DNA from: Okamejei kenojei
Taxonomy: Eukaryota
Assembly: GCA_035221665.1 (NCBI GenBank)
Contig: CM069148.1
Location: forward strand, 7,874,001-7,938,000
Direction of reading: 5' to 3'
DNA: 64,000 nt
Positions 2,933 to 64,000 of this stretch are shown here, one piece after another; the first letter of the stretch is position 1, and each line of letters starts with the position of its first letter. The notes below the pieces were generated by a model. It saw only the letters and a list, made by a program, of their open reading frames with translations, had not been told where the DNA came from and did no database searches. Position numbers and translations under genes: made by a program.

Positions 2933-4673
2933 TGAAATGTTATAGATTTAAAGTGGTATCTCTTTTACTTGTTACTGAATGGAAGATGGAGAGACGCGTC
3001 ACACATGTGTAGGAATTCATCAAGAAATTAGAAACGGATGTAAATTAAATTGTATATTAATAGTGTCGTGGCTAATACTGGACTCGAGCCCCAAATAGAA
3101 TTTAGCTTGTACGTGGAATCTCACATAATTGAATCAGACCCCAGTCTATTTTGGGATTTCCAGAAGTGATTTGATGAAGCACGGAATTGGTATTACGTAA
3201 AGTAAAAGCTCCTATTTGGAAGGAATCCAAGCTAAGAGGAAATCGGTAATACACGAATTAACCTTTTAATTTTATTCAAGAGAGAGTTAGATATATCGCT
3301 TGGGGCTTACGGAATCAAGGGAGAAAGCAGGAACTGGGTACTGATTTTGGATGATCAGCTATGACCATATAGACCATTATCGAAGGGCAGAATGGCCTAC
3401 TCCTGCACATATTTTCTAAGTTTCTAGTTGGCATGATGAGTGGCATGGTACAGGGGTTGATGTTAGTTTAGTTTAGAGATACAGTGTGGAAACTGGCCTT
3501 TCGGCCCACTGAGGCCTTGCCGACCAGCGATCCCTGCATACTAACACTATCCTACACGCACTGGGGTCAAGTGCCAATTAACCTACAAACCTGTGCATCT
3601 TTGGAGTGCAGGGGGAAATCGGAGAAAACCCACGCAGGTCACGGGTGGAACATACAAACTCCGCACCAACACATCCATAGTCGGGATCGAACCCAGGTCT
3701 CTTGTTATTGTTCTCGAGGCAAACCAAGGCTGATAAATGAATTTGTTACAATTGAATTGGAACATACAATGACTTGAGGGATTAATTAGCCTGTAGTTAT
3801 ACTGGTACGGTAAATTCATTCCTGGAACTTCAGCAGGGCCAGCTCTAGGAAAATATTTACTTTAGTTACCTTTCTCCAGATGAGAGACTGTTATAAAAAG
3901 AAAAATTGCATTCTGTTTTATTTTCTATTTCCCGTAAATATTATGCTTCCTCTTTGGATTATAAAATGTAAACCAGGACTATTTGGGGCTGCCTCCATTT
4001 CCAACGTGGAAACAAACAACTCCAGATGCTCGTTGAGCAGTCTGAGGGAGGGTTCCGACCCGAAACAACACCTATCCTTGCTCTCCACAGATGCTGCCTG
4101 ACCCGCTGAGTTACTGCAGCATTTTGCATCTCCTCAGTTTTACAAATGTCATTTGTCTTTAGCAACCAACCCCACTTTGGGAATCAATAAAGTTTTGGGA
4201 TCAATCTTGGCCCAATCTAACACGAAACGTTTAACTTTAGTGACGTGCAAGTGAAAAGATACCATGAACTGACCTAATCATTTGGAACATGAAGTGAAAA
4301 TGTGTGAAGTAAAAGTACTTTTCTTGATTTAGACTTGGAGATGCAGTGCAGAGATAAGCCCTTCGGCCCACTTATTCCACGCCAACCATCCCACACGCTA
4401 ACACTATCCCACACACTAGGGACAATTTACAATTTTCAGAAACCAATTAATATTTTCAGAAACCTTTAATATCTTGTCTTTTTCATCATGCGTATAGAGT
4501 TTGCACAATCAACTAATTTTAAACCAGTTAACATATAATCTGGGGAAGGATCTTGACCCAAAACGCCACCTATTCGTTTTTCTCCAGAAACCCGCTGAGT
4601 TACTCCAGAATTTTGTGTCCATCTTCAGTGTAAAAATCAGCATCTGCAGTTCCTCCTTGCACATTATCTCTAA

Positions 4674-4994
4674 AAGCCCTGTCCCACGGTACGAGTTCAT
4701 TCCAAGAGCTCTCTTGAGTTTAAAAAAAAATCAAACTTGTGGTAAGCACGGAGAATGAACATAGCAGGTACGTCGGTGCTCGGGGACATCTCTTAGCGCT
4801 AACGGCAGGTACTCGGGAAGACTCGCTAACGGCAGTTAAGCGCGGGAAGACTCGTGAAGATTTTTCAACATGATGAAAAATGTCCACGAGTGCCCCGCGT
4901 ACCGACGAGCGGCCATTACCGTAAATCTCCGCGTTCGAATCAGGGCAAACTCGGGAGAACTCTTGGAATGAACTCGTACCGTGGGACAGGGCTT
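4674..4994. mobile_element. MITE, PIF/Harbinger-like
   Basis: 35-bp perfect TIR AAGCCCTGTCCCACGGTACGAGTTCATTCCAAGAG (about 48 bp imperfect); TAA TSD at 4671-4673 and 4995-4997. Confidence 0.85.
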
Positions 4995-5413
4995 TAACAT
5001 TGAGTCTCACTGCCTTGAAGGTGGTGCAATTTACACATAACATTGGAGTGGGAAGGAGCTGCATGCATGATTATTCTGTAATAAAATGGAAAAGCAGCAG
5101 CATGAATTAATAATAATTCATAATAATATGAATTATTATTAATTTTATTTAAATTTGTTTATTAAAATAATATTCAATTTCCTGCTTGGTACCCTAACTC
5201 CGTGACTGCTGTTACGATTTTGGGCTGTAATCTTGTCATTTTCTCCAATTGAATTGAATACTTTGTCACATGTGACGAGTCCCAGTGAAATTCTTTGCAT
5301 GCGTTCCCAAGGTATGCAAACAGTGGCCACGTAAAGGGCGCTTTACGAAATTTCCCACGCCGGGTCCTCATTTGTCTACTTTTGCTTACTTCAACAACTT
5401 TTTCTTCCTTTAG

Positions 5414-5468
5414 GTTTGATCTTTCAGATAAGGACAACTTTTTCAGCAGCACTACAAGAAGCACAATA
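5414..5468 (+). CDS. ANO1: Anoctamin-1 internal coding exon (equiv. human exon ~5), (L)FDLSDKDNFFSSTTRSTI
   Basis: Polypyrimidine tract + AG (5412-5413), donor GTGAGT at 5469; 55 nt; matches ANO1 FDLSDKDSFFDSKTRSTI rather than the ANO2 equivalent. Confidence 0.93.
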
Positions 5469-6588
5469 GTGAGTATTGAAACTTTTGGAATGCTTAATTG
5501 AAGTCAATAATGTACAAACTGTTTCCATTGTTTTTAGTTTCAATTATAAAATGACTATTGTTTATTGCTGCCAAGGGTAGCCCATAATATTTGAAATGGT
5601 TTAATAATGTAAGTGATTCTCTATTTATGTCACTCCACATCAAAAACTGCAGATGCTTGACATCTGAAACCAAGGCTGATTAATGCCAAAAGGGCTTAAC
5701 AAGTCGGGCAGCATCTGTGGGGAGAAAAATGTTGACTGTTTTCTTAAGCTCATAAGTGATGGGAGCAGAATGAGGCCATTTGGCCCAATCAGCTCTACTC
5801 TGCCATTCAATCATGGCTGATCTATCTCTCTCTCCTAACGCCATTCTCCTGCCTTCTCCCCATAACCCCTGACATCCGTACTAATCGATTTTCCACCGCT
5901 GCTGCCTGGTTTGCTGAGGTTTCCAAGCCTTTTCCGCTTTGGTTTCTGTGGGGTTGTTTCAAACTGAATGAACTGTAGATGTTTAAATGATAATCCACAG
6001 TCAAAAGAAAAAATAAAATGCTAAACTATTTTGCGATGGATATTACAAATGAGCAGGAATATTGGCCAAATTGGATAGTAAATGCATTTGTACTGTTTAA
6101 CTTGCTGCTGCTGTTGTTGTAATTGTAAAGGCCCTGTTTTCTGTCCATACCAGGTTGGCTATTTGTGATTTGGCAGGAATCCTCTATGTGTAGCTTGGAT
6201 GTGATTAAGGCTGTAGGTGGGTTTCCAGAGAAAAATATTTGTAGTCCTCCCTCGGTCATGACTGACCATGGGCGATGCATCCTAGTTGTTGGCCGCTTGC
6301 TCCAATTCTTGGCTGGAGCAGCGTCGCTTGCGGCTGAAGAGACCAATGCGGGCGTGACATTCTCTGTCGCAAAGGTGTGTGCGGTCTCTGGTCTGTAGAA
6401 GTTGCCGCTCTTGTCTGCCGCTGCGTTCGTCAGTTTCTCTTCCCCCGTTTTGAGATGTTGGCTCAGGGTGCCTCTCCACCTCGTGCGGTCCAGCTGCAAG
6501 GCTCTCCCAGGACTCCACATCGAAAAATATCTTGTCACAGTAACAACACTGTTGGAATTGTGATATGGACAAATCACTGAAATAACTC

Positions 6589-6807
6589 GGGTGTACACAA
6601 AAAGCTGGAGAAACTCAGCGGGTGCAGCAGCATCTAAGGAGCGAAGGAGATAGGCGACGTTTCGGGTCGAGACCCTTCTTCAGACTCTGAAGAAGGGTCT
6701 CGACCCGAAACGTCGCCTATCTCCTTCGCTCCTTAGATGCTGCTGCACCCGCTGAGTTTCTCCAGCTTTTTGTGTACCCTCGATTCTCCAGCATCTGCAG
6801 TACCTTT
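6589..6807. mobile_element. Palindromic mini-element derived from the Penelope terminus (92-bp perfect arms 6593-6684 and 6686-6777, plus tail)
   Basis: Arms are exact reverse complements; arm nearly identical to 42703-42796; 18-bp TSD AAATCACTGAAATAACTC at 6571-6588 and 6808-6825. Confidence 0.9.
6687..6714 (+). ncRNA. Minimal type I hammerhead ribozyme core (putative); mirrored on - strand at 6656-6683
   Basis: CTGAAGA-A-GGGT(CTCG)ACCC-GAAA-C-GTC: CUGANGA box, 4-bp stem II, GAAA box, palindromic ACGU stem III, GUC cleavage triplet. Confidence 0.7.
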
Positions 6808-7820: not shown

Positions 7821-7822
<2 letters not shown>

Positions 7823-7851: not shown

Positions 7852-8921
7852 TGGAAGGATATAAAAAAGTGAAAGGGTAATCATGTCATTGACCCCATAA
7901 GGGCACATGGTGCTGGAGTAACTCAGCGGGTCAGGCAGCATCTCGGGAGAAGATGCTTAGGTGACGTTCCGGGTCTGGACCCTTCTCCAGGCTCCCGACA
8001 CAAAACGTCGCCCGTCCATGTTCTCCAGAGATGCTGCCTGACCCGCTGAGTTACTCCAGCACTGTCTTCTTTTGGGCCAAGGTACGTACCTGTTTGGGAA
8101 CCCGGAGGAAAGGATTAATCTGTGGAAAAAGTCTTCCTGTAACTTGTTTGTTACAACAGAGACTTGGCAAGAAGTAAAAATAGATGCCGGGCGTTTCCCG
8201 TTGGGCCCAGTCTCTGTGGAAAACGGACCCGTGAGAGCTGGGCACATCAGGGTTGCAGCGGCAATATTTTTAGCATTATTATTGATTTGAAGAGCAAACA
8301 TCCCCAATTGGACTTCCCATCTGAGACTGGATCAGGCTGATTAATAGTGGCGGCAAATGTGAACTGTTTAACTAGTTTAGTTTAGAGATACAGCGTGGAA
8401 ACAGGCCATTCAGCTCGCTGAGTCGATGCCAGTCACGCACATGCACCATATTTTTAAGGTAGAGATAGATAGATTCCTGGTTAGTGCAGGTATCAAAGGT
8501 TATGGGGAGAAGGCAGGCGAATGGGATTCGTAGGCTGAGGTAAATCAGCCATGATTGAATGGTGGAGTAGAATTGATGGGCCAAATGACCTAATTCTACT
8601 CCTATCCCTTATGGCCTTAAACCAAGCCAATTAACCCACACACCTGTACGTCTTTGGAGTGTGGGAGGAAACCGGAGCACCCAGAGAAAACCCACGCAGG
8701 TCACTGGGAGAACGTATAAACTCCGTACAGACAGCACTCGTAGTCAGGATCGAACCTGGGTCCCTGGCGCTGTAAGGCAGGCATTCTACCGTTGTGCCAT
8801 CGTGCTGCCCATTAGAAGAAGAATGCAGAAGGATGTCGTTTTCTTCAAGGTCTGGTCCTGCTAAGTTCAAGGAGCAGCGGTCGTGATGTTTTTGGGGCCA
8901 GTTCACCAACTGCTTAGGAAT

Positions 8922-8993: not shown

Positions 8994-10624
8994 TGGTCAT
9001 TAACCTGACAAGGAAATGGGCGTTGTGAAGTGGGGGGAAATGAGAGACTTGAGGATGAAGGAAAACTAACTTTGAACCAAGATAGTATCGGAAGGTGGAG
9101 GGCAGAAATGTGTTTGGAATTGTTAAGGGAAGAAACTGTCCCTGAATCTGGAGGTGTGTGTTGTCATGCTACTGTACCTTTAGCCCGATGGGAGTGGGAA
9201 GAAGAGGGAGTGGCCATGGTGCAGCTCATCCTTGGTTATGCTGTTGTGTTGCTGAGGCAGCGTGAGGTGTAAATGGAGTCGGAGGAAGGGAGATTGGTCT
9301 ATGTGATGGTCTGGCTTTCGCCACAATTCGCTGGAATTTCTTGTGGTTCTGGATTTGCAATAACAAAGAGAATTGGATGGCCATTCCATTCCTCCCTGAT
9401 GGTTCTACCCTCATGGTTATTTTCATTCTAGTCAAGGTCTTTTACGCATCCTCCAATGCCTCTGGGTCCTTTTATTGTATGCGGTACTGTATATCATGTG
9501 CCTACTATGGTCTAAGCAAGGTGCAAATTAACATGTGCAGCCTTTAGAATGGCATTTGCTCAATGTTTACCATCTTGAATATGGTAAAAGCACACCTTAT
9601 TGTTTCGCATTCTACTTGTGAGCCATTCTAATCGTGTGTGTGTGTGTGTGTGAAATCTTGGGGAGCTCAGATTTGAACAGTTCAATCAATAGCCATTGGT
9701 GAGCCTTTAACTCAGAGGTAAACGTCATCAACCTCGGTACTGAACGGTTTAGGTTTATTGCCTCGTGAAATGAGGTAGAGTGAAGAGCTTTGTTTTGCGA
9801 GTTCCCCGATCCAATCGGATATTACACATAAATGATAAAAGATAGATCGGATATACATGAATGCCATGAATCCCATCTCAAGTACAGTTGGTAGAGCTAA
9901 AGGAAGATACAGAGTGCGGAATATAGTTCTCAGCACTGTAGCGAACAGAGATAGACTGAAGGAGGATCTCGACCTGAAACGTCCCCCATTCATTCTTTCC
10001 AGAGATGCTGCCTGTCCCGCTGAGTTACTCCAGCTTTTTGTGTTTATGTTCGGTTTAAACCAGCATCTGCAGTTGCTTCCTACACTGTAATAGCTTGATT
10101 GTAATCGTGTGTTGTCTTTCCGCTGACTGGATAGCACACAATGTTTTGTGTCCCTCTTCAGTTTGAACCAGCTTCCTACACATTGTACCGCCAGAGTTCT
10201 GGAGACAAAGTCCTTATATTAGCAATAGGGTAGCGGTGAATCGGACAGTTTCATGGCTGATGGAAGGTCCATTCAGAAGCCTGATAATAACAGAGGGGAA
10301 GAACCTGTTCCTGAGTCTGGTGCACAAGGAACTGCAAGTACTGCAATCACGATCAAAACATAAAAGTGCTGGAGGAACTCGGCAGGACGGGCAGCATCCG
10401 TGGAGGGAAATGGACAGTGGACACTCTGGGTTGGGACCTTCAGAAGCTTTGAATTCTTTCCTTCCACGGATGCTGCCAGACCTGCCAAGTTCTTCCAGCA
10501 CGTGTATTTTGCTCACGTTTTGTGGGATTTCAGGGTCAGTTGCCCAATTCACATCATTTGCACCAATGATTTAACTTAATGGTATCACGTGTGCCAGTTC
10601 CTAATTAAATGAAAAGAGATTTAG

Positions 10625-10933: not shown

Positions 10934-11813
10934 TGAGATTGTGCAGGAAGTTATGCTGAATTTGTCAACAGCACCGGAGTAAACTTCCTTGTTGTGAAAA
11001 GAAAACAATTTGTGTTTCCCTAAATTACTTCAGAACTCATTTGGAATGTCGCTAATTCGCATTCCTGCTGAGATTGGTGCTCACATGCTTGGCTCTGCTG
11101 TTCTTATTTCACTGATGATGGAATCTATTAATACACTGTTTAGTTAAACCTTTCTGATGGTTTATCGAGTCAATAAAGGACCGTGTGTACATAAAAGCAG
11201 CTCATTGAAGATAAAGATAAACTATTCTGGGTCCTGTATTTACAACTCGCTCTGGAAATGTAAACTTTCAGGATAGAAAAATAATTCCGATACATCTTTT
11301 CCTCCTATTTTGTACCCGACAGTAAGTAACATAGATACATAAAGTATATGCCAGCACCGCCATTAAATGTGATCACGGCTGATCACCCAAAATCAGTACC
11401 CCCTTCCTGCTTTTCCCCCATATCCCTCGATTCCGTTATCCCTAACAGCGAAATTTTAACTCTCTCTTGAAAACATCCAATGAATTGGCCTCCACTGCCT
11501 TCTGTGGCAGAGACTTCCACAGATTTGGTAGTTTTAAGTCTTTTACAGAAAAGTAATACAAATATTATGTAAGTTTACAAAAGGTTTGAATCCTGCCTGA
11601 TTCCATGGCAGCGAGTCTCTTGCCGCCACCCCGAAATCTCTGTTCATTTAAATAGGAACTGGCACACACGATATCATTACCACATCCAGAGAGCAGTCCC
11701 GGACTACTATCAACCTCATTGATGAACCTCTGACTCTCCTTGTTGGGAATTTGCTGGGCTTCACCTTGCACTAAACTTCATTTCCCTTAACATGTATCCA
11801 GACACTGTAATAG

Positions 11814-11998
11814 ATACAACAGCGGAACAGGCAGCATCTCTGGAGAGAAGGAATGGGTGAAATTTCGGGTCTGAAGCAGGGTCTCGACCCGAAACACCCG
11901 ACCCATTCCTTCTCTCCAGAGATGCTGCCTGTCCTGCTGAGTTACTCCAGCTTTTTGTGTTTATCTTCGGTTTAAACCGGCATCTGCAGTTCCTTCCT
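11814..11998. mobile_element. Degenerate palindromic Penelope-terminus mini-element inserted into a Rex1-type 3' fragment
   Basis: Inverted arms around ctgaagcagggtctcgacccgaaac; 12-bp TSD ACACTGTAATAG at 11802-11813 and 11999-12010. Confidence 0.75.
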
Positions 11999-12334
11999 AC
12001 ACTGTAATAGCTTGATTGTAATCGTGCATTGTCTTTCCGCTGACTGGATAGCACACAACAAAAGGTGTCCGAAGAAAGGTCTCCGCCCAAAACGGCACCT
12101 ATTCATGTTCTCCAGAGATGCTGCCTGACCTGTCGAATTACTCCAGAACGCCATGTGCTAGAAGGTTTCTTGTTTTTTTCACGATCGCTGCAATGCTTTC
12201 AAAGAATGACTCTGGTTCTAGCCCTTTCTGTGAGTTAATCTTTAAAATAGTTGCAGTACATTTAATTTGACATTGCACGTGCAAGTGACATTGCTTGCTG
12301 ATCGTAAATGTGAAAAAAATATGTTGTGGAGTTT

Positions 12335-15303: not shown

Positions 15304-17213
15304 TCTGTATCTCATGGTGACGGGCAGTGAGAGTGCTGGCGGGGAGAGTAGAAGTGCCACGCCTGTGTACAAACTCCATACAGACAGCACCCATTGTCAG
15401 AATCAAACCTGGGTCTCTGGAGCTGTGAGGCAGCAACTCTACTGCTCTACCACTGTGCTGCCCTGTCCGGTAAAGAGCTGCCCTGTCCGGTGAAGCTTCC
15501 TCATGAGGGGCAGTGAATGGTGCTCCTGGCCTCTCGTGGTACCCTGCCACATGACACGTGCAAAGGGGTGGGACAGATACAACTTGGTAACGTGCTGCTG
15601 TCTATCCATGTACACATTGGGCTCCACTGGTGGAGATGTGAACCACCTGGTGGGCCCTAAGCAGCCCTGACAGTCAAAACTGAAGCTCGGACAGACCGAA
15701 AAGTAACTCGGTGGGTCAGGCGGCATCTCTGGATAGAAGGAATAAGTGAAGTTTGGGGTTGAGATCCTTCTTCAGTCTGCTAGTCGGACACAGACCCAGT
15801 CTATGGGAAGGGTCTCGACCTGAAAGGTCACCCATTCCTTCTATGCAAAGATGCTGCCTGTCCCGCTGAGTTACTCCAGCATCTTGTGTCTATCTTCGGT
15901 GTAAATTGCATCTGCAATTTCTTCCTACGCATTGAAACTCTCTCACACTGGAATGCCCTGCTAGCTTTGCCCTGTGACCTTAGTACAAAGCTCTTGACTT
16001 TTGCTCTACCAACTATTCAAGGGCTATTCGTGTGGGAGCCAACTTGCAAGCACTGAAGTGCTCTCTTTCAATAAAGAGAAAGATGACTTTGGATGAAAAC
16101 AATGGGAATATTTTGCAGAGACCCGGAACTGCAGATGCTGGTTTAGAAAAGATACAATGCTGTGGAATAACTCTGGTCAGGTAGCATGAACACAAAATGC
16201 TGGAGTATCTCAGCGGGTCAGGGAGCATCTCTGGAGAAAAAGCATAGGTGATGATTCGGGTCATGTGCCTTTTTCAGGGGTCATGATGAATGACGTTTCA
16301 GGTCGGGGCCCTCCTTCAGACTGATTGCCGGGGAGTGGCAAGAAAGCTGGATGAGGGGAGTAGCAGGTTGAAGATTAACACGGGCAAGGAGGGTTTTATG
16401 AAAGGCAGATGGTTCGGATGAAGGCCAGAAGCAATATTTTGGATTGGGGTTGAAGATAATTTGTGACTTGCAGTAATTCACCTCTTCCACTCTTTCCATC
16501 CTGCGTAGAGTTGTTCATTTCTAGCCTCTTAGACATGACTAACTTCATTCTTCTATCAGTTTCTTAGTTTGAGATTAAAAAAAATAAGACACACAAAGGG
16601 TGATGGGTGTATGGAGCGAACTGCCGGAGGAGGGATTTGAGGCGTGTGCTATCATCGCATTTAAACAGTTGGACAGGTACATGGATAGGAGCGGTTTAGA
16701 GGCATATGGACCAACGCTGGCAGGTGGGACTAGTGTAGATGGGACATGTTGACCGGTGTGGGCAAGTTGGTCTATAATGGCCTGTTTCCACTCTGCAATA
16801 CTCTCTGACTATAAAAAGTCTGGATGCAACAACTGGATTTGATTAGAAAGCCTTGGCTTACTCAAACAAAGACTCTTGTGACAAGCTAAATAGTCGGTTG
16901 GTATTTGATGACCATTTCCAAATGGAGTTGTATTTTTGGCTTTTTGTTGTTCAGAGCAGTGACCAAGGAAGCTTTTGTCCTGAGCCATTTTCCTGATTAA
17001 TTTGTAGCAATGATTTCCCCGATATCCAGAGAAATGCATGCATATTGTTAATTAAAATAATCATTGTGGACAATAGGTGCAGGAGGAGGCCATTCGGCCC
17101 TTCGAGCCAGCACCACCATTCAATATGATCATAGCTGATCATCCCCAATCAGTACCACGTTACTGTCTTCTCCCCATATCCCCTGACTCTGCTTTCTTTA
17201 AGAGCCCTATCTA

Positions 17214-17232
17214 TCTCTCTCTCTCTCGAAAA

Positions 17233-28550: not shown

Positions 28551-28689
28551 ACAGGGTAGGATGATGGCTTTGTTTTTTCCCCCCAAAATAAACTTTTGAA
28601 GGTTTTTTAAACTGCAGATGCTGGTTTAAACTGAAGATAGACTGACTGGCTTTAGACTCCTGATTCTCCTGATCCCTTTAACCTACCAG

Positions 28690-29075
28690 TTTAATCTTTT
28701 CTGTCCTGGGCCTCCATTGTCAGAGTGAAGCCAAATGCAAATTGGAGGAACAGCACCTCATATTTCGCTTGGGCAGCTGACAAGCGGCCAATATGAATAT
28801 TGATTTCTCTAACTTTGTAATCTTTCCATCCTCTCCCCCTTTTTTTGTTCCCTGATTCATTGTATAACTGTCTGTATTTAATCATTTACACCTACCCCCA
28901 CAGACAACAATGGGCCGTTTCCTTGATGTTCGTTACTATTTTGCGCACCTTTGTTCTATGTCGCCTTCTATATCTCTCCTTCCCCTTTTGTTCAGCTGAC
29001 TCGGCCCGAAACATCCCCGATTCCCTTTTCTCCAGAGATGCTGCCTGACCCACTGAGTTAGTCCAGCATTTTATG
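28690..29075 (+). mobile_element. Degenerate Penelope-like 3' fragment (GIY-YIG C-terminus and terminus)
   Basis: Encodes ...HCQSEAKCKLEEQHLIFRLGS*...MNIDFSNF, homologous to the 43030-43290 ORF; followed by the same terminal repeat. Confidence 0.75.
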
Positions 29076-30062
29076 CGTCTGTCTCGAGTTTGTTAACGTT
29101 TCCACGAGTGGATCTCAAAGGTCCACTCACCAGTTAGATGTAGCTCTTCGGGCTAAGGGGGAGTCGAGGGATATGGGGGGGAAAGCAGGAAAGAGACACT
29201 GATTTTAGATCAGCCATTGGTCATATTGAATGGCTCGAAGGGCCGAATGGCCTACTCCTGCACCTATTTTTGTGTATTTCTATGCTGCAACTCTGAGAGG
29301 AGCAACATCGTCTTTGCTGAAGTGCTTGGTGACTTGGCCATTGCTGCAAGCATTCTAGTGAAACAAATTGCTATCAGCTGGGATTGCTTCTGTGGGTGGT
29401 AGGAAATACAGAAAGAATTGGCCTGACAAAGCACTTGTGTTTTACAATCTTTGTTATCACAATCTTAACATCTCGGAGTTCTTTATAGCCGATGAATAGA
29501 TTTACTTTGGAAATTAGCTACTTGTAACGGCCGTAATCTGGCCATCAGATTGCACGAAGATATACATTAATGACACATTAAATTGAGGTCGAGTGGGAGA
29601 TTGAACAATGAATTTAGTCAAATCCTGTTTGACGCTCGTCTGTGAAGCATACTCTGAAACGTCATCTCATGGTATCAGTATTTTTTATTGATCTGTCGGT
29701 CTGCAGCGACCGCAAAGCTGCCGATCAGCGGCATCATAGAAAATGGGCACTGGAGGAGGCCATTCGGCCCTACGAGGCAGCACTTCCATTCAATACTATC
29801 ATGGCTGATCATCCAACCTCAGTACAACCCCATATCCCTTGATTCCGGTAGCTCCAAGAGCTACAATTTAACACTCTTGTAAATACTTTCAAGTGCACTG
29901 ACTGAGGGCGTTGAAATCTTGACACAAATGTCAACCTCAGCATTCATTTCAGTTTAGTTAGAGATACAGAGCGGAAACAGGCCCTTCGGCCCGCCGAGCC
30001 CGCTCCGGCGCCTAGTTTTAAGGTGAAACGTCGTAAAGTGCTGGAGTAACTCAGTAACTGGA

Positions 30063-34909: not shown

Positions 34910-35790
34910 GGAGAAAGCTGGAGTTGAGAGGAGATCAATGCCTGGCAAGTGATGGGTGGATACAGGAGTAGTTTGAGGGCAGGGGGAGGCGTTTGGCAAG
35001 TGGGTGGAGTAAATGAAAAACAAGCTAGAGGTGACGAGGGTAAAGAGGAGAGGAGAGTAATACCACTATGACTGCACCTTAATTGGTGCTCGTGACGATA
35101 CAAGACCTTTGAGTGAAATGTAAAAATGGAGGGGCTGGATAAGGGATGGGGAGGGTGTGGTAAAGAGCGGGGATTAAAGGGAAATTTGGAGTATGGGTAA
35201 TGAGATTCCAAAGGTCGGAAAGGAGCAGGATAACTCGGAGTAGAGACATCGATGTTCATATCGCTGGGGTGCGGACCCAAGCAGACTACCCCACCTCATA
35301 TTTCTCTAGGGTATTCTGAGCATATGAACATTGACCTCTAATTTTCGATAACCCTTGCTTTCTCCCTCCTTCCCCTCCCCTTCTCAATTCTCCCGCAGTC
35401 CTACTGTCGTCTCCTCCTCCCTTCCTCCCCACCCCCCCCCCCCCCCCCAACATCAATCTGTTGTCGCCTATTCCTTCTCTCCATAGATGTTGCCTCACCC
35501 GCTGAGTGTCTCCAGCATTTTTCGTCTACTTTAGATGTTACCAGCATCCGCAGTTCCTTCGGGAGGGGAGGGGGGAGGGGAAACAAGAAAGAGAAGTGAT
35601 GTGGGGGGGCAGTGGTTTATTACTGGAAGTTGGAGAATTCAGCATTCGTACCATTGGATTGTAAGGTACCCTGATAGTTACAAACACACCTACCCTGGAC
35701 ATCGCCTGTTATGTTTTACTTGTGCAAGACACAAACTCCGCACAGACAGCACCCGTAGTCAGGATCAAACCCGGGTCTCTGTCGCTGTGA

Positions 35791-42687: not shown

Positions 42688-42702
42688 CTGGTGGTGGGGA
42701 GG

Positions 42703-43307
42703 GTACACAAAAAGCTGGAGAAACTCAGTGGGTGCAGCAGCATCTAAGGAGCGAAGGGAGATAGGCGACGTTTCGGGCCGAGACCCTTCTTCAGACTGGT
42801 CAGGGATCAGGGAAACGAGAGATATAGACGGTGATGTGGAGAGATAAGGAACAATGAGTGAAAGATATGCAAAAAAGTATCGGTGATAAAGGGAACAAGC
42901 CATTGTAAGCTGTTTGTGGTGTGAAAATGAGAAGCTGGTGCGACTAGGGTGGGGGAGAGATAGAGATAGAGGGAATGCCAGGGCCCGAGGGCTGAGGGAG
43001 AGGTGGGAAGGGGAGGAAGACAGCAAGGGTTAACAGAATTGAGAAAATTCAATATTCAAGCCCAAAGGATGCAGACTCCCCAAACGGAATATGAGGTGCT
43101 GTTCCTCCAGCTTGCGGTGTTGCTCACTCTGGCCGTGGAGGAGGCCCAGGACCGAGAGGTCGGATGTGGAATGGGAGGGGGAGTTGAAGTGCTGAGCCAC
43201 CGGGAGGTCGGGTTGGTTATTGCGGACCGAGCGGAGGTGTTCGGCGAAGCGATCGCCAAGCCTCCGCTTGGTCTCACCGATATAGATCATCTGGCATCTG
43301 GAGCAAT
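42703..43307 (-). mobile_element. 5'-truncated Penelope-like retroelement (GIY-YIG endonuclease C-terminus, 3' UTR and hammerhead-bearing terminus)
   Basis: ORF 43030..43290 IYIGETKRRLGDRFAEHLRSVR...PVAQHFNSPSH...LEEQHLIFRLGSLHPLGLNIEF is a PLE GIY-YIG domain; 15-bp direct repeat CTGGTGGTGGGGAGG at 42688-42702 and 43308-43322. Confidence 0.9.
42767..42794 (-). ncRNA. Minimal hammerhead ribozyme core in the PLE 3' terminus (putative)
   Basis: Reverse complement CTGAAGAAGGGTCTCGGCCCGAAACGTC; the stem II change keeps a U-G wobble. Confidence 0.65.
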
Positions 43308-46477: not shown

Positions 46478-46820
46478 GGGAAAGAACTGCCGAAGCTGGT
46501 TTAAATCGAAGGTAGACACAAAATGCTGGAGTAACTCAGCGGGTGAGGCAGCATCTCTGGAGAGAGGGAATGGGCGACGTTTCGGGTCGAGACCCTTCAG
46601 ACTGATGTCGGGGAGGGGGCGGGACAGAGATAGAATGTAGTCGGAGACAGTAAGGCTGGTGGGAGAACTGGGAAGGGGGAGGGGATGGAGAGAGAAGGCA
46701 AGGGCTATCTGAAATTGGAGAAGTCAAAGTTGATACTGCTGGGGTGGAGACATAGAAAATAGGTGCAGGAGGAGGCCATTCGGCCCTTTGAGTCAGCTAC
46801 CCAAGCAAAATATGAGGTTA
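46478..46820 (-). mobile_element. Penelope-like 3' fragment
   Basis: Terminal repeat with partly deleted hammerhead, purine-rich 3' UTR (on +), remnant 'caagcaaaatatgagg' of the HLIF.LG codons. Confidence 0.65.
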
Positions 46821-51377: not shown

Positions 51378-52164
51378 AGTTGCATTTAGTTCCAAATACA
51401 CATTGAAATCATTATATGCTCCATCAATTTGTCCATCAACTGGAAAGCAATTACTGCTCTCTTCATAAAATCTTACTACTGATGAAGGGCAATTGGATGA
51501 AGAAACAAAAATGAGAAATAAATGAAAGGATGTCCCATTCTTGAAACCCTCTACTTTGGGCAATGCCTAGAAGAATCTAATAAACACCAGTGTATTCTCC
51601 CAGAAGAAATTGATTTCTTGTAAATACTCCCTAATTCCCAAGGTAAATAAAAACAGTTCCAGATTATTTTCCCCATCCACAATTTGCCATTGTGCCATCT
51701 TGGCCCAGTGCTCTTTAATAGATTGTGTTATACCTCCTTTCATTTCTTTCTGTTACCCGCCAAAACCTATGACTGAACCAGCATGGAGGCTGAAGAAGGG
51801 TCCCGACCTGAAACATAGGTGCAGGATTAGGCCATTCAGCCCTTCGGGACAGCACTGCCATTCAATATGGTCATGGCTGATCATCCAAAATCAGTCCCCC
51901 GTTCCTGCTTTTTCGCCCCATATCCTTTGATTCCGTTAGCCCTAAGAGCTAAATCTAAATCTCTCTTGAAAACATCCAGTGAATTAGACTCCACTGCCTT
52001 CTGTGGCATAGAGCTCCACAGATTCACAACTCTCTGGGTGAAAAAGTTTTTCCTCATCTCAGTCCTAAATGGCTTACTCCTTATTCTTAAATTGTGACCC
52101 CTCGTTCTGGACTCTCCCAACATCGGGAACATTTTTCCTGCATCCAGCCTTTAAGAATTTTATA

Positions 52165-53270: not shown

Positions 53271-54257
53271 TACCCCAAAGGTACACGAAATGCTGGAGTA
53301 ACTCATCGGGACAGGCAGCGTCACTGGAGAGAAGGAATGGGTGACGTTTCGGGTCGAGACCCCTCTTCTGTCTTTAATTATTTGGGGCGTTGTGGCACTA
53401 ATGAGAATTAACCGAGTTTAATACTTCACTTAAAGCAACATTGCAAAGGTTGAAATTACCTCTTGCAATGAGGTCATGTTAAAAGACTGCACGTTAGTTG
53501 TGGTCCCGAGGACATGTTAAGAGACGGCATGTTACTAGTGTGTCAAATGATGATGGCCTTATTCTTGCTTGACTCTTGGAAGCACTTGGAAGTTTATTTA
53601 AATGTTGACCTTGGCTCTAGAATGAACAGTGAGTGCCCAGATGATAGAGATTGCCAGTATTATAAAAGGACTCAAATCGCTGGAGTAATTCAGCAGGCCT
53701 GGCAGCTTCCCTGGAGAACATGGAGAGGTGACGTTTCAGGTTCAGACCCTTCTTTAGACGGCAGAAGATTCTTGCCCCAAAATGTCACCTCTACACGTTG
53801 ACACTGTGGAAAGGTGTCGACCCGAAACATCACCCGTCCACGTTGAGTCTGAAGAAGGGTCTCGACCCAACCCGCTGAGTTATTCCTGCACTCTTTGTCC
53901 TTGTGTATTGACCAGCATCTGCTGTTCTTTGTTTCCACAATCCCTGTATTATATTTGATCATTAAAAATACAAACACTGGAAGCAAGCAGGTTAGGCAGC
54001 ATATATGGAGAGGAGAACAGAATCAATGTTTCAATCAACCCTTCATCAATGTGTTTTGGTTATATTAAGATATAATACAGAGAACCCATTTGGCTGACAT
54101 TGTCTCAATGGTGCAACTAGTCCCAAACTCAACTTACCAAATTCCGAGTCCTCTGGGTCCCCTTTCGAGTCCTCCGCCTCTACTTTCCCTGCTGTTCGGT
54201 GCTTTCAGAGGCTACCCTGTTCACGTTGGCTCTTCCAGTGTTTATTCTATCGAATGA

Positions 54258-55176: not shown

Positions 55177-56829
55177 ATGGGAGGATGTGGTTTCTGCTTT
55201 AAGTCGAGTTAATGTATTGAGCAAGGTTGTAATATTTGATATAGGGAATGTAAAAGGTGGAGATGGAACCTCCAACACATTTATCTGAATGAAGTAACTT
55301 TCTTTGCTACAAAGGCATATTCCATTGTTACAATTGTCCAGAACCAGGGGCCACAGTTTAAGAATAAGGGGTAAGCCATTTAGAACGGGGATGAGGAAAC
55401 ACTTTTTTCACACAGAGAGTTGCGAGTCTGTGGAATTCTCTGCCTCGGAGGGCGGTGGAGGCCGGCTCTCTGCTATCTTCAAGAGCCCTATCAAGCTCTC
55501 TCTTGAAAGTATCTTGAAAGAGTCGGAGGATATGGGGGAAGGCAGGAACGGGGTTCTGATTGTGATGATCAGCTATGATCACATTGAATGGCGGTGCTGG
55601 CTCGAAGGGCCGAATGGCCTACTCCTGCACCTGTTGTCTAATAAGACGGCAACGTATTGGTTATTCTAACAAATGCAAGGAGAATGTTATCCATTCTCAA
55701 GATGTGTGTCTAAAATGCTTTTGCACGTTTCCTGTCTGGCAGTTCCACATACGTATATTTGAATGCAGTGAATCACAAGTATTATTATTAATGTTGGAAC
55801 TTGCAACGAGAAATCCGGGGTTGTTGTATCGTCAACCAGATGCCCCAGCAGAAAAATATTTTGTGCAGACATTCTTGTTGTGCTTGTTTTGCTTGCCTAG
55901 GCTAGCCCTTTCATTGCCCCCACGGGCTGCCTCGCTGTTCCCCTGGGCGCTGAGCCAACTACTTGGCGAATGTTTGTGGAGCATCTGTGTCTAAACATTC
56001 CTTGCTAGACGTGGGCACAAAACGCTGGAGGAACTCAACGGGTGAGGCAGCATAGATGGAGAGAAGGAATCGGCGACGTTTCGGCTCGAGACCCGAAACG
56101 TCGCCCATTCCTTCTCTCCATAGATGCTGCCTCACCAGTGGTATTCTGTTCCCACCCATTCCGTTAATAACACCTTTTTTTTTTCGACAGCTCATTACAG
56201 AACTATATGCAAGAGTAACATCACTGAAATAATTTGCTATCAGTAGCACGAAAGGGCTGCCAGCAATTATCCTTCTTTTTCCATGACCATTTATTTTTCA
56301 TGAAGACAGACACACATAGCTGGAGTAAATCAGCGGGTCAGGCAGCATCTCTGGAGAAAAGGAATGGGTGACGTTTCAGGTCGACACCCTTCACAATCCG
56401 AAACGTCACCCATTCCGTTCCTCCAGAGACGCTGCCCGATCCGTTGAGTTACTCCAGCTGTTTGTGTCTGTCTTCAGTTTAAAACAGCATCTGCATTTCC
56501 TCCTTGCACATTTATTTTTTCATGTCTTATTCTTGTTCCTGATCCATTTTTTTTTCTTTCTCTACTTCCCCATAATTTCCCATGTGGGTGAGCAATCAAG
56601 CAAGTGGTGCACTTTCCCAGGAGTCTGCATACTCTCAATAGGATGTCAAATGTAATTTGTTTTCCCTTACCAATCTAAGTGTGGCCTATGAGGGTTGTGG
56701 AAACATACTTGTACCTCCAGGTGTACGATTACACCTGTGATAAATTTTCAACTTGCATGCATTTGCCGGCAGCCCAGAAAATCACTTGCGGTCCTTCCCT
56801 GCGCTGGTACATAAGGTCATAAGTGATAG

Positions 56830-58050: not shown

Positions 58051-58947
58051 TTGAGAGCTTTGTGCAAATAATGGACGTGATGGTGTCAATGTCTGTCGTC
58101 ACCAGAACAGCTACTATTTGTATGTTAGATCATTGGGTACCTTGGCCGGTTCGCAGCTTGCTATTACAGCAGCAGACCAGCACAGTCTCGCCCCTGACCT
58201 GCATCACCATCGTGTTGGATTGTCCCAGCTTAATAACCATTCATCGCACCAGCCAGCACAGGATCACGTGTGCGTGTGATGCCGTGCTGTTTAAAAATGT
58301 CACTCCAAAAATGGTAGAAATTCAAACCATTTACATCTACTTGTCCATATCTGCGGCACTATCTGCAAATTGTCCACTCCAGCTGGTGTTTAAATGAAGT
58401 AAACCCAGAAGCAGAGAAACGGGCCCATTTTCAAGGCTCTTTCCAGTGAGTATGTAAAACCTGTGTAGGAAGGAACTGCAGATGCTGGTTCATATCGAAG
58501 ACAGACGCAAGGAGTAGCTCAGTGGGTCGTCCCTGACCTGCTAAGTTATTCCAGCAGTGTGGGTGTGTTCCTATTGTTCATCAAACCATTCACTTTTCCC
58601 TCCTTGGATGGGTGTTCATGTTGAGTTGCCAAGGTTAATAGTGCCGACCAGTTTGCCTGAGCTATGTACAAGGGAAGTTAAAAGTGAATTAAAGAAGGCA
58701 CAAAGTGGCGGAGTTACTCAGCGGGTCAGGAAGCATCTCAGGAGAACATGGATAGTTGACGGTTCTGGTCGGGACCTATCTTCAGACTAATTATATTGGG
58801 GTTAGGGGGTGAGGAGGAGGAGGAGAAAGAAAGTTGGGAGAGAGGATGGGCATGACTTACCCTTAGTAGGTGATAGGTTGAAGCTAGACACAAAAAGCTG
58901 GAATAACTCAACGGGTCAAGCAGCTTCTCTGCAGAAAAGGAATAGGT

Positions 58948-58975
58948 GACGTTTCGGGTTGAGACCCTTCATCAG
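58948..58975 (-). ncRNA. Minimal hammerhead core with canonical CUGAUGA (putative)
   Basis: Reverse complement CTGATGAAGGGTCTCAACCCGAAACGTC. Confidence 0.6.
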
Positions 58976-59561
58976 ATACAGGTGAGGAGGGTAGAGAGTT
59001 GGGCAAAGGCCAGTGAACTACGCTGAGCACAATCGCAACATGGTTTCCCGTTGATATCACTCAAAATTAGGTTGATTTATTTTTTATGTTCTGCTTTTTG
59101 TTTATTTATAACCAAGTTCAAATTTAGAATGGCGCTGTGGCACAGCCAGGGGAGGGAAAGTCAGGTTCAATTCTGACCTCGGGTGCTGTCTGTGTGGGGT
59201 TTGCACGCTCTCCCTGTGACCGCTTACGTTTCCTTCGGGTGCTCCGGATTCCTCCCACATCATAAAGGCCTGCAGGTTGCGTAGGTTAATTGGTCCTCTG
59301 GAAATTACACCTTGTGCGTAGGGTGGTACGGTGCAGATGCAAGGAACTGCAATCAAGCTAGACTCTCTTCCCATACTCTTCCCTAACAACCCTAACAAAT
59401 TCCATTCTCATTTTTTTTAAAAAGATATTTATCCAGCCCCTCTCTCAATTCTGCTATTAACTTTGCCTCCACTCTCTCTCTAGAAGTGCATTCCATCCTC
59501 AAATATCCATTGTGTTTATGAAAAACCTCGCACCCTCTGATACTTTTGCCAATCACCTTTA

Positions 59562-60473: not shown

Positions 60474-62021
60474 TAAGTGATAAACTGACCAGAAAGCCTC
60501 TGCACAAATGTCGTCTTGTTTAAATTTGGGTAAACATTGTAAGCCCTGTTTTAATACTTAACAAATGTTGCGTGACACTAGTCAAACTTTCAATTGAAAC
60601 CATCCATTAAATTCATTTGTTTTGCTTACAGTCCATTACTTTATGTAAGCTTGCCTTAAATCAACCTTGACTGTGCAGCTGAGCACTATGACATTTTTAC
60701 CTCTGACAAGACGACTGCAAATGACAACAACATATCTAAGTAGTACTCTTAACATGGCTCCCGTACATAAGATATCGAAAGACACTTTGCCGTGCAAAAG
60801 TAAAACAATTTGTATTGGGTTGATTTGCGACATAAAGCTTTCTCAGGGCACATCACAATCACAAGCTGATTTGCAAATGCATCTCCTGACTCCCAACTAT
60901 AATCTATATCTGAAAAAGTGTCCCAACCTGAAATGTCACCCATCCTTTTTTCTCCAGAGATGCTGCCTGACCTGCTGAGTTGCTCCAGCATTTTGTGTCC
61001 ATCTTTGGTGCAAAGTAGCGTCTGCACCTTGTTTCTACCTTCCTATGCCTGTCCTGCAGAGTGTGCAGGGTTACAGTGCTAGGGACCCGGGTTCCAACCT
61101 GATTACGGGTACGTTCTCCCTGTGACCACTTGGGTTTTCTCCGGGTGCTCCAGTTTCCTCCCACACTCCAAAGATGTATGGGTTTGCAGTTTAATTGGCT
61201 TCGGTAAAACGTTCTCTAGTTTGCAGGATGGTGTTAATGTACAGGGCGATTGCTGGTCAGCACGAACTCACACGGTTGAAGAGTCTGTACTTGCGCACAG
61301 TATGTCTAAAGATTGTTTTCTCACCCTCAATGTACTGTCTGCAACCCAATACACTGGTTCAACTCTTGCTGGAGAACATGCGTAGCTAACGTTTGGGGTC
61401 AAGATCCAGCACTTTGTGTCCTTTCCTGCTGAGTTACGCCAGCAGTTTATGTCCTTTTGCATAGTAACCAGCATCTGCTGTTCTTTGTTTCTACATAGAA
61501 TTATAGTGTCGTACAGGGAGGAAACAGGCCCTTCGGCCCAACTTGTCCACACCAGCCAACATGTCCCATCTACACTAGTCCTACCTGCCTGCGTTTGGTC
61601 CATGTCCCTATAAACCTGTCTAGGGTACACAAAAGGCTGGAGAAACTCAGCGGGTGCAGCAGCATCTAAGGAGCGAAGGAGATAGACGACCCTTCTTCAG
61701 ACCTGTCTAGATGTTTCTTAAATGTTGCCTCAACGACCTCCACCAGCAGCTTGTTCCATGCTCCCGCCACCCTTTGTGTGGAAAAAGTTACTCATCGGGT
61801 TCCTATTAAATCTTTCCCCCCTCACCTTAAGCCTTTGTTCTCTGGTTGTCACTTAAACATCTTCTCAATAACATAGCAACTTGTTGTTCTCATCGCACAC
61901 GTTAGTTGGGACCTCGGTCAGTTCCTATTTGTGGATGGAAGTAAGATGGGATTGACAGGTCAACATTTTCCGGTCCAGAATAGGTGCAGAATGTAACTAA
62001 AGGCAGTCAAGTGCCTATTTC

Positions 62022-62572
62022 TTAAAAAAAATAATTTAAAAAAGATATTTTAATTAGAAGTAATGTACATTACCGTAGTATAAGCCATAAAGAACATAAT
62101 ACATTTCATATTCCACTTGTTTTAAACTTTAAGAAAAGGAAAAATAGAAAAAGATAAAATAGTAAGTGCGTGAGAGAGTGAGGAGAAAGAACCCGTAGAG
62201 GACGAAAAAGGAAAAGAGAAAAATGTAAAAAAAGAAAATATAAGAAAATAAGATAAGCTAAAGGGGATGTACCTACTTATCTTTACACACCCCTCACCAG
62301 GTCCTGAAACCGTTTATTTTCAAAGTTATGTTGCTTGTAATAAGTCGATAAATGGAGACCAAATCTTTTGGAATTGGTCTGATTTGCCTTCTAGGACGAA
62401 TCTCATATCTTCGAGGTGTAATATTTTGGACATATTTGAAATCCGCATTTTACCGTTGGTGTGGGAGGTTCTTTGCCGTTATTAAGCCATAATTAAGGAA
62501 ACTCTTTTGGAACGAAGTCAGCTCAGAACCGACTTCCATTGTTCCAAAAATAATCAAATCTGCATTCGGTTT
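62022..62572 (-). mobile_element. L1-clade LINE 3' fragment with TSD
   Basis: - strand encodes MRISNMSKILHLEDMRFVLEGKSDQFQKIWSPFIDLLQAT* (fish-type L1 ORF2 C-terminus); 18-bp TSD CAGTCAAGTGCCTATTTC at 62004-62021 and 62573-62590. Confidence 0.8.
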
Positions 62573-62601
62573 CAGTCAAGTGCCTATTTCAAACAAGGCC
62601 A

Positions 62602-63015
62602 ATTTTTTTTTTTTAATATATTTATTTTATTAGAAGCACTTTACCATGAAAAAGTAATCAACATAACAATTATACAATTTTCGTACAGCTTCAATTTTAA
62701 CATTTTGTAAACTGATAAGTGAATCGGAAAAAAGTAAAAAGGAAAGAATGAAAAGGAAGAAAGATACAAAAAAAAAGATGCAAAAACCCCTGAACTAACA
62801 AAGAAGTGATTTTTTTTTAAAGCGGAGATATACCCCACTAACCTTCCCTACGCCCGCTCACCCGACCCTAGCGTTGGTTTTGAATTTGTGTTCAACCATT
62901 CTGTTGAAGAAATTCACTGATAGGAGACCATATTTTGGAAAATTGGTCTGATTTGTCAGACAAACAAGCCTTATTTTTTTCTTAATGTAGTGTCTCGGTC
63001 ATTTCTGTGATCCAC
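62602..63015 (-). mobile_element. Second L1-clade 3' fragment
   Basis: - strand EWITEMTETLH...DKSDQFSKIWSPISEFL; poly(A) tail seen as poly-T at ~62603-62614; direct repeat TCAAACAAGGC at 62589-62599 and 63016-63026. Confidence 0.75.
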
Positions 63016-64000
63016 TCAAACAAGGCTAGAGTTACACAGTGCATTGACTTCTGTTCCGTGGCACCATCATTGGTGTCAAAGAGCAGAGAGAGTTCAAAAC
63101 CCAGTGATAGAGACAAAAGTCTGGAGTAACGCAGCGGCTCAGACAGCATCTCTGGAGAAAAGGAATAGGTGATGTTTCGGGTCGAAACCCTTCTTCAGAT
63201 TGGGAGTCGGGGGAAAGGGAAGCAAGAGATATAGGTGGTGATGTAGAGAGATAGTGAACAAATGAATGGAAGGTACGCAAAAAAAGCAAGGATGATAAAG
63301 GAAACGGACCATTGTTAGCTGTGAGATAGGTGAAAAAGTGTTACAGACAATGAGACTCAACAAGACAACCCAAAATGTCTTTAATTCCTTTTTACCGGAG
63401 ATGTTGCCTGAGCCGCTGAGTGACCAGCTATTTGTGTCTATCTTTGGTTTAGACCAGCAGTTCCTTCCCACTCAAAACCCAGTGAACTGGTGGAACTTCC
63501 GAGCACGGTTGTACCAATTTCACTCTTGCAGAAGGCGGAAAGCAGTGTACTATGTGTATGAGTAACTGCAACGTCACTGCAGGAGATGTCTGATGAATCA
63601 TTCCTGGTGTCTGAGAAAAAAAATCAACTAAACAAGACGTCCTTAAGTTTGTGGTTTCCGTAGCTTATTCACCATAGACAAGGAACTCACTGGAATATAA
63701 ATAACTCAGATTTAAATGTTAACATATGACGACGTTTCAGTTTAGTTTATTACCAAATCATCGGTTTCCTTTGCCATTGAATTTTAGTAGAAGCTTGCAC
63801 CTTTCAACTCCAGTTCGTTTTGAAGGAAAATATATACAACATTTTATATTCAAACAAGATACCATGTTAGACTTGATTGATACATTCTTCTTAGTCTTGT
63901 GTTCATTAATTTATTTTTTACCATCCACTAGGATGCCCAAAGAGGTTCTGATGAATAAAGTGGAGAAACAGAGAATGTTTCCACTAGTGGGAGAGTCCAG

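Follow-up and report, generated by a model that had tools for sequence, protein, structure and literature searches.

The window analysed here, 64,000 nt of the skate Okamejei kenojei (contig CM069148.1, positions 7,874,001 to 7,938,000, forward strand), holds an anoctamin exon on the plus strand (44880-45017 of the window; Pfam PF04547, E 8e-16, frame 44679-45017) and, within or near the introns of that gene, a dense family of repeats that we relate to the terminus of a Penelope-like element (PLE), many of them joined head to head as fold-backs. A reading of the sequence alone had noticed a motif that recurs, as such or as its complement, every 1-2 kb. A profile built from 18 copies in the window and run with nhmmer recovered 77 fragments, hereafter arms, of a terminus of ~131 nt (6,536 bp in all), and no match in the reversed window used as control. 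Grouped into clusters of arms within a 200-nt gap, they amount to 40, spaced by ~1.6 kb on average with largest gaps of ~6 kb, which agrees with that reading; one cluster can comprise several insertions. The proposal that the family rivals a short interspersed element (SINE) in copy number also held, the tRNA-headed SINE of the window, presumably HE1, having 50 matches in 41 clusters (9,440 bp). We number the terminus 1-131 in the sense of its hammerhead motif, the strand opposite that of the motif first noticed.

These fragments are, with high confidence, the 3' ends of several subfamilies of an endonuclease-bearing PLE of the Neptune or Nematis type, truncated at their 5' ends upon insertion into anoctamin introns, because a single target-site duplication (TSD) bounds an endonuclease fragment, an untranslated region (UTR) and the terminus, and because homologues of that fragment carry a reverse transcriptase (RT), a linker and a GIY-YIG domain. 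The copy in question spans 605 bp (Table 1), with a TSD of 15 bp at 42688-42702 and 43308-43322 and a pyrimidine-rich 3' UTR of ~235 nt, and it vindicates the original description of a Penelope terminus with a hammerhead-type motif. On its own the 91-codon endonuclease fragment has no Pfam match. It is 88% identical to a skate protein, and among its 27 longer homologues all eight that were scanned match GIY-YIG at E 3e-5 to 0.05, two of them above the curated cut-off. Shark and other homologues carry the RT (YIDD), a CX5CxxC linker (found after the RT in P0002, P0004, P0005, P0015 and P0020) and GIY-YIG; RT and linker are absent from the window, the 605-bp copy beginning downstream of the linker. 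The clade, probably Neptune or Nematis, is assigned from homologues 51-67% identical to the window fragment, not from a tree. The closest match, P0001, starts with an RT stretch unlike that of the other homologues and is possibly a chimera of the annotation. In several annotated models from skate, ray and shark (P0001-P0003 and P0021) the endonuclease fragment seems to have been taken up beside unrelated domains, fusions that are probably annotation artefacts, and one shark gene model continues into a peptide like the window translation across the hammerhead.

The family is clearly genome-wide and common to several organisms: a 660-nt stretch around the 605-bp copy (42680-43339) matched 82,071, 78,793, 49,197 and 5,847 contigs in four public runs from three organisms, none of these contigs spanning the whole stretch. 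In run X1 the summed contig depth, which is not a copy number, was 16.4 million in the hammerhead bin, where other subfamilies raise it, 1.5-7.1 million over the UTR and endonuclease, and 57 in the flank. In the window, further ends of the PLE open reading frame (ORF) lie at 28697-28816 and 46711-46749, the UTRs of the copies at 63098 and 35300 are 72-77% like those of the copies at 42703 and 46479, and at least five copies extend upstream into the 3' UTR or ORF. Nine of the 30 single arms extending as far as position 17 have a pyrimidine-rich stretch upstream, a feature of 6% of background windows. Long copies are thus not rare, and the "mini-elements" of the sequence-only reading are therefore a size class rather than a separate family; most copies are best read as truncated PLE ends.

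In the model, CUGANGA occupies positions 5-11, an unpaired A stands at 12, stem II is formed by 13-16 with 21-24, GAAA fills 25-28, and ACGUC ends at 32, after which the cut is predicted. The consensus of the 77 arms has the features of a minimal type I hammerhead, namely the CUGANGA, GAAA and UH core, an unpaired base before stem II and a palindromic helix III, and we regard the motif as a predicted ribozyme of this kind. An Rfam scan of the window at E values up to 1 matched no hammerhead family; its 11 weak matches all lay under the gathering score, and those to microRNAs and cis-elements were long fold-back hairpins. Six copies folded as monomers gave z scores of -1.0 to +0.8 against shuffles, with stem II in one only, a failure to fold as a hammerhead that is expected for the minimal type, whose self-cleavage would probably take a dimer or the help of protein. 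Folding also showed that positions 7-16 are able to pair with 33-44. Downstream of the hammerhead there are conserved blocks at 52-60 (516/552), 69-83 (857/956) and 109-117 (262/281), and variable stretches at 33-47 and 84-108 (~74% kept). Block 52-59 is complementary to the tail block and 68-83 makes a hairpin, and the conserved blocks may act as protein-binding and start signals. The 3' ends of the 77 arms are bimodal, 29 falling at 90-105, 31 at 120-131, four in between and 13 shorter. The short end (~90-102) and the long end (~126-131) are ~35 nt apart, a difference that corresponds to the PLE tail.

The sequence-only reading had also seen ribozyme-preserving variation, restricted to tolerated positions. 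Such variants occur, but the G-U wobble in stem II and the CTCA loop fall at CpG sites and are not accompanied by covariation. The CpG at 24-25 has become TG in 15 copies and CA in 10 (p=0.42), and CA destroys core G12; all core bases are intact in 10 of the 28 copies covered from the core start, with stems II and III intact too in six. CpG decay accounts for most of the variation, and decay among the inserted copies looks neutral. A covariance check on 30 copies found two-sided change in one of 21 pairs, none of it in stem II, and 434 of 500 shuffles scored as high, a null result of low power on decaying copies. Non-CpG core positions are kept in 396/428 cases (92.5%), more often than the stretch 33-95 (3066/3715, 82.5%; p=1e-8), but the first two downstream blocks are kept as well as the core (1373/1508, 91%; p=0.38). 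Core conservation would reflect constraint on the source elements.

The 37 adjacent pairs of arms within 200 nt divide into 18 head-to-head, 10 tail-to-tail and nine tandem pairs, and within 45 nt there are 16 head-to-head pairs against two tail to tail. All ten fold-backs that the first reading had listed are among the 18, the one at 53670-53940 being complex, with tandem units. Its claim of TSDs at several of them was borne out at four, and two more occur at 6585 and 63098, so that an exact TSD of 11-18 bp spans both arms at six of the 18 pairs; none of 306 mismatched flank pairs scored as high. With those of two single copies, the window has eight exact TSDs (10-18 bp). At several 3' ends among the TSD-bounded ones (11813, 42702, 63107, 11999 and 28551), the TSD opens with 2-4 bases that agree with the way the element itself continues, a match for which no null was counted and which short pairing between target and template at priming would give.

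Diagnostic columns sort 51 of the 77 arms into four subfamilies, A to D. Both arms belong to the same subfamily in all ten callable pairs (chance 0.34 each), of which five are A, two B, two C and one D. Arm identity within pairs runs from 100% down to 65%, with values of 65-72% at 12809, 21284, 53660 and 58466, and, with all arms ranked, the partner sits at a median within the top 8%. Junctions, written here as the model positions at which the left and right arms end, vary from locus to locus; only the 3/20 type recurs, in A and in C, with the arms swapped. Because four subfamilies contribute and the junctions differ, these fold-backs are the product of repeated, independent formation, each at its own locus and over a long time, and not of a spreading master.

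Table 1. Copies of the PLE terminus and associated features in the window (junctions as left-arm/right-arm model positions; A to D, subfamilies)
Positions	Strand	Feature	Details
4039..63468	both	Family span	77 fragments in 40 clusters; profile search
6571..6825		Fold-back, B, youngest	18-bp TSD; arms identical in 92/92 shared columns; junction 2/4, 1-nt overlap; tail on right arm only
7893..8072		Fold-back, C	Junction ~2/12; neither arm tailed
10325..10508		Fold-back, D, old	Junction ~4-10/40 with spacer; tail on left arm
11802..12010		Fold-back, A	12-bp TSD; junction 20/3, 3-nt overlap; tail on right arm
15702..15927		Fold-back, A	Junction 1/~10, ~27-nt spacer; tail on right arm
20218..20418		Fold-back, C	Junction 3/20, 3-nt overlap, type as at 11870; both arms long
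21284..21466		Fold-back	Junction 7/40 with spacer; tail on right arm; arms 65% alike
21824..21997		Fold-back	Junction 47/4; tail on right arm
28373..28564		Fold-back	14-bp TSD; junction 1/6; right arm lacks positions 18-71, tailed
28610..29086		Long inverted insertion, probable	Tailed short arm 28610-28642 (-) head to head with + copy starting in endonuclease C-terminus at 28697
33266..33367		Fold-back	Junction 13/64, 4-nt overlap
34710..34923		Fold-back, B	14-bp TSD; junction ~20/23, in 3' strand of stem II; appears to lie inside an older PLE 3' UTR
35300..35561	+	Single copy	ORF end, 3' UTR (72% like 46479 copy) and tail
42703..43307	-	5'-truncated PLE copy, B, 605 bp	Endonuclease C-terminus, UTR, hammerhead, short 3' end; 15-bp TSD
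43033..43305	-	Endonuclease fragment, GIY-YIG-type	91 open codons; CxxC, IYIG and H..H motifs
46479..46750	-	Single copy	Tail, 3' UTR and last ~13 ORF codons
53660..53931		Fold-back	Right side of tandem partial hammerhead units of ~44 nt, then tailed end
56009..56141		Fold-back	Left arm to 13, right from 20, 5-nt overlap on stem II; sole clean snap-back-like junction
56288..56519		Fold-back, A	11-bp exact TSD; junction 10/~23; tail on right arm
56829..57025		Fold-back	Junction 6/45; 16-nt stretch repeating positions 7-18; tail on right arm
58466..58570		Fold-back, short	Junction 63/60, outside hammerhead; tail on left arm
61614..61710	-	Single stub, 77 bp, B	10-bp TSD; 5' end ~4-5; internal deletion
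63094..63485		Fold-back, long, A/A	14-bp TSD; tail-less left arm ~160 nt into 3' UTR; tailed right arm from ~21

Junctions were placed at 18 hand-curated loci. The pair at 12809/12980 was left out (83-nt spacer, arms 67% alike, partner rank 41/43; its inclusion adds two ends in 37-72), and 28610/28697-29086 was added though beyond the 200-nt cut-off. Of the 36 arm ends, 13 lie in positions 1-7, four in 8-12, nine in 13-24, none in 25-36, seven in 37-72, one beyond and two upstream. Breakpoints are thus enriched at the motif, as the sequence-only reading had noticed: 26 of the 36 fall in 1-24, which makes up the 5' two-thirds of the hammerhead, while the cleavage site has none. An end in 1-24 is found at 16 of the 18 loci (p=0.003 under a uniform null over 1-72), and none of the 33 ends in 1-72 falls in 29-36, i.e. 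within four bases of the cut (3.7 expected, p=0.02). For the original 18 pairs, the profile starts before curation are distributed in much the same way, 26 in 1-24 and 0 in 25-32. The end of an arm in a fold-back is no artefact of the model because the adjoining base belongs to the partner arm; starts of single arms at positions 1-8 (25/41) were not used, the model itself being trimmed there. A splice acceptor at positions 1-3, as in Drosophila virilis (PMC4209133), was considered and rejected: several arms retain those bases, and spliced RNA is not indicated.

Of the 16 scored junctions, five show overlaps of 3-5 nt (5% expected) and two a 1-nt overlap; at one the arms abut, and eight have spacers. 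Four fold-back points that had been placed just before the CUGANGA box or inside stem II were right to within a few bases (6685-6686, 2/4; 28477-28478, 1/6; ~34797, 20/23 by eye; 56090-56094, 13/20), and the last of these is the one junction in 18 that is a clean stem II snap-back. Of the 16 pairs that could be classified, 14 have a single tailed arm (p=0.002 relative to random pairing), and the tail-less arm reaches farther 5' in 11 of these 14 (p=0.057, two-sided), clear cases of a tail on the shorter-reaching arm being 21284, 56300, 56829, 63098 and 28610. The right, plus-strand arm is the tailed one in 11 of the 14 asymmetric fold-backs (p=0.057), a bias possibly tied to the direction of host transcription or replication.

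To account for these patterns we favour, with our judgement about evenly balanced between belief and doubt, a twin-priming scheme in which two target-primed cDNAs from two start sites would be joined by micro-complementarity. The endonuclease would nick both target strands, 10-18 bp apart, and each 3'-OH would prime its own cDNA on the element RNA, one from the short start (~96) and the other from the long start (~131); one arm only would bear the tail because each cDNA begins at a different start site. Both cDNAs would extend toward the 5' side of the RNA and stop mostly in positions 1-24. As they would be of the same sense, they could be joined only through inverted complementarity or by blunt or spacer end-joining, and the hammerhead region would offer micro-matches between 3-5 and 20-22, 13-17 and 20-24, and 13-16 and 64-67. 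Ribozyme cleavage would not set the cDNA ends. Their clustering at 1-7 may mark the 5' end of the RNA, a structural stop (7-16 pairing with 33-44) or the palindrome at 1-7. Anatomy, TSDs, junction positions, tail asymmetry and subfamily match are what the window displays directly; twin priming, the order of the two primings and the reason why the cDNAs stop are inferred. In the in vitro experiments of PMC11167929, the PLE of Anolis nicked both strands and extended them, began reverse transcription at two sites on either side of a tail and used uncleaved RNA, and the same source predicts that its protein is a dimer.

Several points weigh against this scheme. It is built on one 64-kb window and 18 hand-curated loci, many of them old and with ends uncertain by several bases; the 11/14 excess reaches only p=0.057 two-sided, and six of the 11 pairs differ by less than 10 nt. 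One of the five overlaps (7989-7993) is mismatched, and 10 of 16 junctions abut or have spacers. Among 17 scored pairs, five rank the partner 17th or lower from at least one side and one more ranks it 21st-24th. Some pairs may be two insertions, 12 of the 18 being without a clear TSD. The data are also matched by self-priming with later removal of one tail by the endonuclease (PMC3846280, PMC8557442). Finally, the Anolis data concern a Poseidon element, and the part of that work we compare with includes no inverted product (PMC11167929).

We also entertain, tentatively and as an unlikely elaboration of twin priming, that a dimeric PLE protein would prime both strands on the two internal starts of one RNA, the tailed cDNA trailing, and that both cDNAs would run off where the RNA begins, immediately upstream of the hammerhead. 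An initiator motif would fit the bases around position 2. Were this so, the 95-130 nt stubs would be inserted "strong-stop" cDNAs of the 5' pseudo-long terminal repeat (pseudo-LTR) and long copies would derive from its 3' counterpart. A single cause would then underlie tail asymmetry, inverted repeats and partial tandems, in a step of the PLE cycle so far undescribed, and the skate genome would hold many thousands of scorable events.

The foremost alternative to twin priming, which we think rather doubtful and yet a serious contender, is self-priming, in which one cDNA, or an antisense template, would fold at a hairpin of the hammerhead region and copy itself, the endonuclease then trimming one end together with its tail. 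It is the published reading of PLE palindromes in the relevant passages of PMC3846280, and PMC8557442 attributes the tail to endonuclease resolution. The stem II overlap at 56090-56094, the common subfamily of the arms, their identity at 6585 and the three of 14 pairs in which the tailed arm reaches farther all speak for it. A shorter arm that bears the tail is, however, not a plain copy of the other, since self-copying of a fold-back cannot add a tail that its template lacks, and without trimming self-priming fails at each of the five clear cases named above. It also needs a one-base loop at 6685 and ~34797, the tail borders are RT start sites in vitro (PMC11167929), and single copies with a TSD end at the short site as well (42703, 61623). 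The RT template switching at the hairpin that the sequence-only reading had inferred comes close to self-priming: repeated independent formation stands, but a switch by a single RT is weakened by the lone clean snap-back and by the tail on the shorter arm.

Non-autonomous mini-element masters, whose RNA would start at the hammerhead, could be the source of the short copies under either joining mechanism, and we consider them improbable. Thirteen fold-back ends lie in 1-7 and only two pass upstream, ~21 of the 30 single arms reaching 17 lack a pyrimidine-rich UTR upstream, and loose contig ends heap at position 1 in three runs. Against this, subfamily B has a long endonuclease copy along with short copies 98% alike, position 1 is also the point at which the UTRs of subfamilies diverge and at which the model is trimmed, and a TSD proves the 5' end of one short single copy only. 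Less probable again is that the pairs are separate insertions or later rearrangements, with an endonuclease that favours its own sequence; the nested pieces at 34604-35561, the low arm identity of the four loci already named and the 12 of 18 pairs without a clear TSD would fit, but a single TSD spans both arms in six pairs, close pairs are overwhelmingly head to head, and the subfamilies match in ten of ten.

A fold-back master propagating as its own family in the manner of miniature inverted-repeat transposable elements (MITEs), the other origin first suggested, is very improbable. The recurrence of the 3/20 junction speaks for it, as does the ~68 nt of right flank common to the 9953 copy and the 11820-11999 fold-back, which may mark a locus duplication; four subfamilies with differing junctions, the recurring type in A and C with arms swapped, and a long tail confined to one arm speak against. 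Among the window fold-backs we found no junction shared along with private mutations by different target sites, and one possible passive duplicate. The copies at 9952-10150 and 11802-12058, 1.9 kb apart and ~90% alike, have in common the right flank (another repeat) and differ in their left flanks, and may have arisen by passive duplication or by inserting twice at a preferred site. Finally, that hammerhead cleavage makes the RNA 5' end for RT run-off and so sets the junctions is the least tenable reading: a minimal type I core lies in the expected place by the description in PMC4209133, but no end falls within four bases of the cut, most arms include sequence 5' of it, and uncleaved RNA is the main in vitro substrate (PMC11167929).

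Among the single arms, a TSD search covering 33 of them was convincing only at 42703 (15 bp) and 61623 (10 bp), the other matches of 8-11 bp being at chance level, and no TSD was found at 28610..29086. The nest at 34604-35660 comprises an old minus copy with its UTR, a young fold-back in that UTR, a plus copy with an ORF end and an ORF-end-like stretch to the right, which suggests that PLEs insert into one another. At 53760-53870 and 16186-16322 the hammerhead section by itself is directly repeated, in short units of ~36-44 nt that look like the seed of a retrozyme array; a partial tandem lies at 58691-58977. An extra G precedes position 2 at each joint of the 53760-53870 tandem, perhaps also at 21619, and nowhere else. 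Joints between public contigs on 42680-43339 (e.g. 42797 to 42762, with one extra C) were set aside as evidence on fold-backs or caps, as their steps of 30-36 nt may be assembly artefacts.

Other repeats share the window. Fragments of long interspersed elements, which we take to be of the CR1 type, lie at 50471-51385 (-), 1632-2189 (-) and 26121-26540 (+), the first with a 304-codon open RT frame (50474-51385; PF00078, E 2e-28). Two copies of an element of ~280-320 bp with 49-nt terminal inverted repeats, 94% complementary (4673-4995 and 45660-45942), look like a non-autonomous DNA transposon. Two copies of the tRNA-headed SINE stand tail to tail at 31192-31763, and a 78-nt inverted pair flanks a SINE piece at 1141-1555.

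The window thus offers a natural data set in which short, TSD-bounded pairs can be scored for junction, tail and arm reach, features for which twin priming and self-priming predict different patterns. The empty interval around the predicted cut agrees with the use of uncleaved RNA as template in vitro, as reported in PMC11167929. For annotation, the fold-back hairpins mimic microRNA precursors, as in the weak Rfam matches, and MITEs.

A Repbase or Dfam entry for this terminus likely exists already, and in the open-access literature we found no report on this skate family or on twin priming in PLEs. The homologues resemble Neptune and Nematis PLEs in a C-terminal GIY-YIG with CCHH and in the CX5CxxC linker; the relevant section of PMC8557442 assigns a CX2-5CxxC linker between RT and endonuclease to these two clades. 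The hammerhead is like the minimal ones described for metazoan PLEs in PMC4209133 in its CUGANGA core, the single unpaired base that precedes stem II, a closing G-C pair, a palindromic ACGU for helix III and a short helix I. Stem II has 4-5 bp here against 7-8 in that paper's Schistosoma example, and the covariation reported there was not seen in our 30 copies. The same source attributes thousands of dispersed hammerheads to truncated PLEs and describes dual motifs on opposite strands 100-700 bp apart; its sections on these elements do not name cartilaginous fishes. Very short 5'-truncated PLE insertions, with a median of 128 bp, are described for Chlamydomonas in the part of PMC9977147 that treats them. 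For D. virilis Penelope, the passages of PMC2377424 place the start site 46 bp upstream of an intron of 75 bp, which by PMC4209133 terminates at the hammerhead, and a transcription start right at the motif would differ from this.

The Anolis carolinensis Poseidon element PAc is similar, in the experiments of PMC11167929, in that two RT starts downstream of the hammerhead bound a tail. Its main start lies 85-92 nt past the cut (from 111-118 and 26), compared with ~60-70 and 95-100 nt here; it belongs to a different clade, and its ORF begins within the hammerhead, where our consensus has no ATG. Non-LTR retrozymes are likewise PLE-derived non-coding repeats with a type I hammerhead, and the relevant part of bioRxiv 10.64898/2026.07.22.740005 reports them in one chondrichthyan genome. 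They form tandem arrays of whole units, whereas the copies here are single or inverted: Tandem Repeats Finder detected no array of terminus units in the window, only short decayed partial tandems at 16186-16322 and 53760-53870.

The closest parallel is with PLEs that have inverted pseudo-LTRs, as presented in the passages on Adineta vaga Penelope (PMC3846280), the general scheme (PMC8557442) and D. virilis Penelope (PMC2377424). Common to these and to our fold-backs are a head-to-head inverted 5'-truncated copy, TSDs, partial tandems, a tail of 30-40 bp at one end only, and palindromes or overlaps at the inverted junction. Head-to-head inversion, one-sided tails, junction palindromes and TSDs are already described (PMC3846280, PMC8557442, PMC8969392), and PMC4209133 also has the inverted architecture. 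The origin of the inverted repeats and one-sided tails is stated as open in PMC8557442, and the passages on inverted copies in PMC3846280, PMC8557442 and PMC2377424 contain neither a mapping of junctions onto the ribozyme nor a comparison of arm reach with tail. In those passages TSDs are 8-10 bp, against 10-18 bp here. Unlike the published inverted PLEs, those of the window have arms that are mostly under 131 nt and ORF-free, at one cluster per 1.6 kb, and junctions that can be placed on the 5' edge of the hammerhead and on stem II, not on the cut. What is new here is the junction map and the pattern of tail versus reach, in a small sample; the element itself is an ordinary, very abundant PLE.

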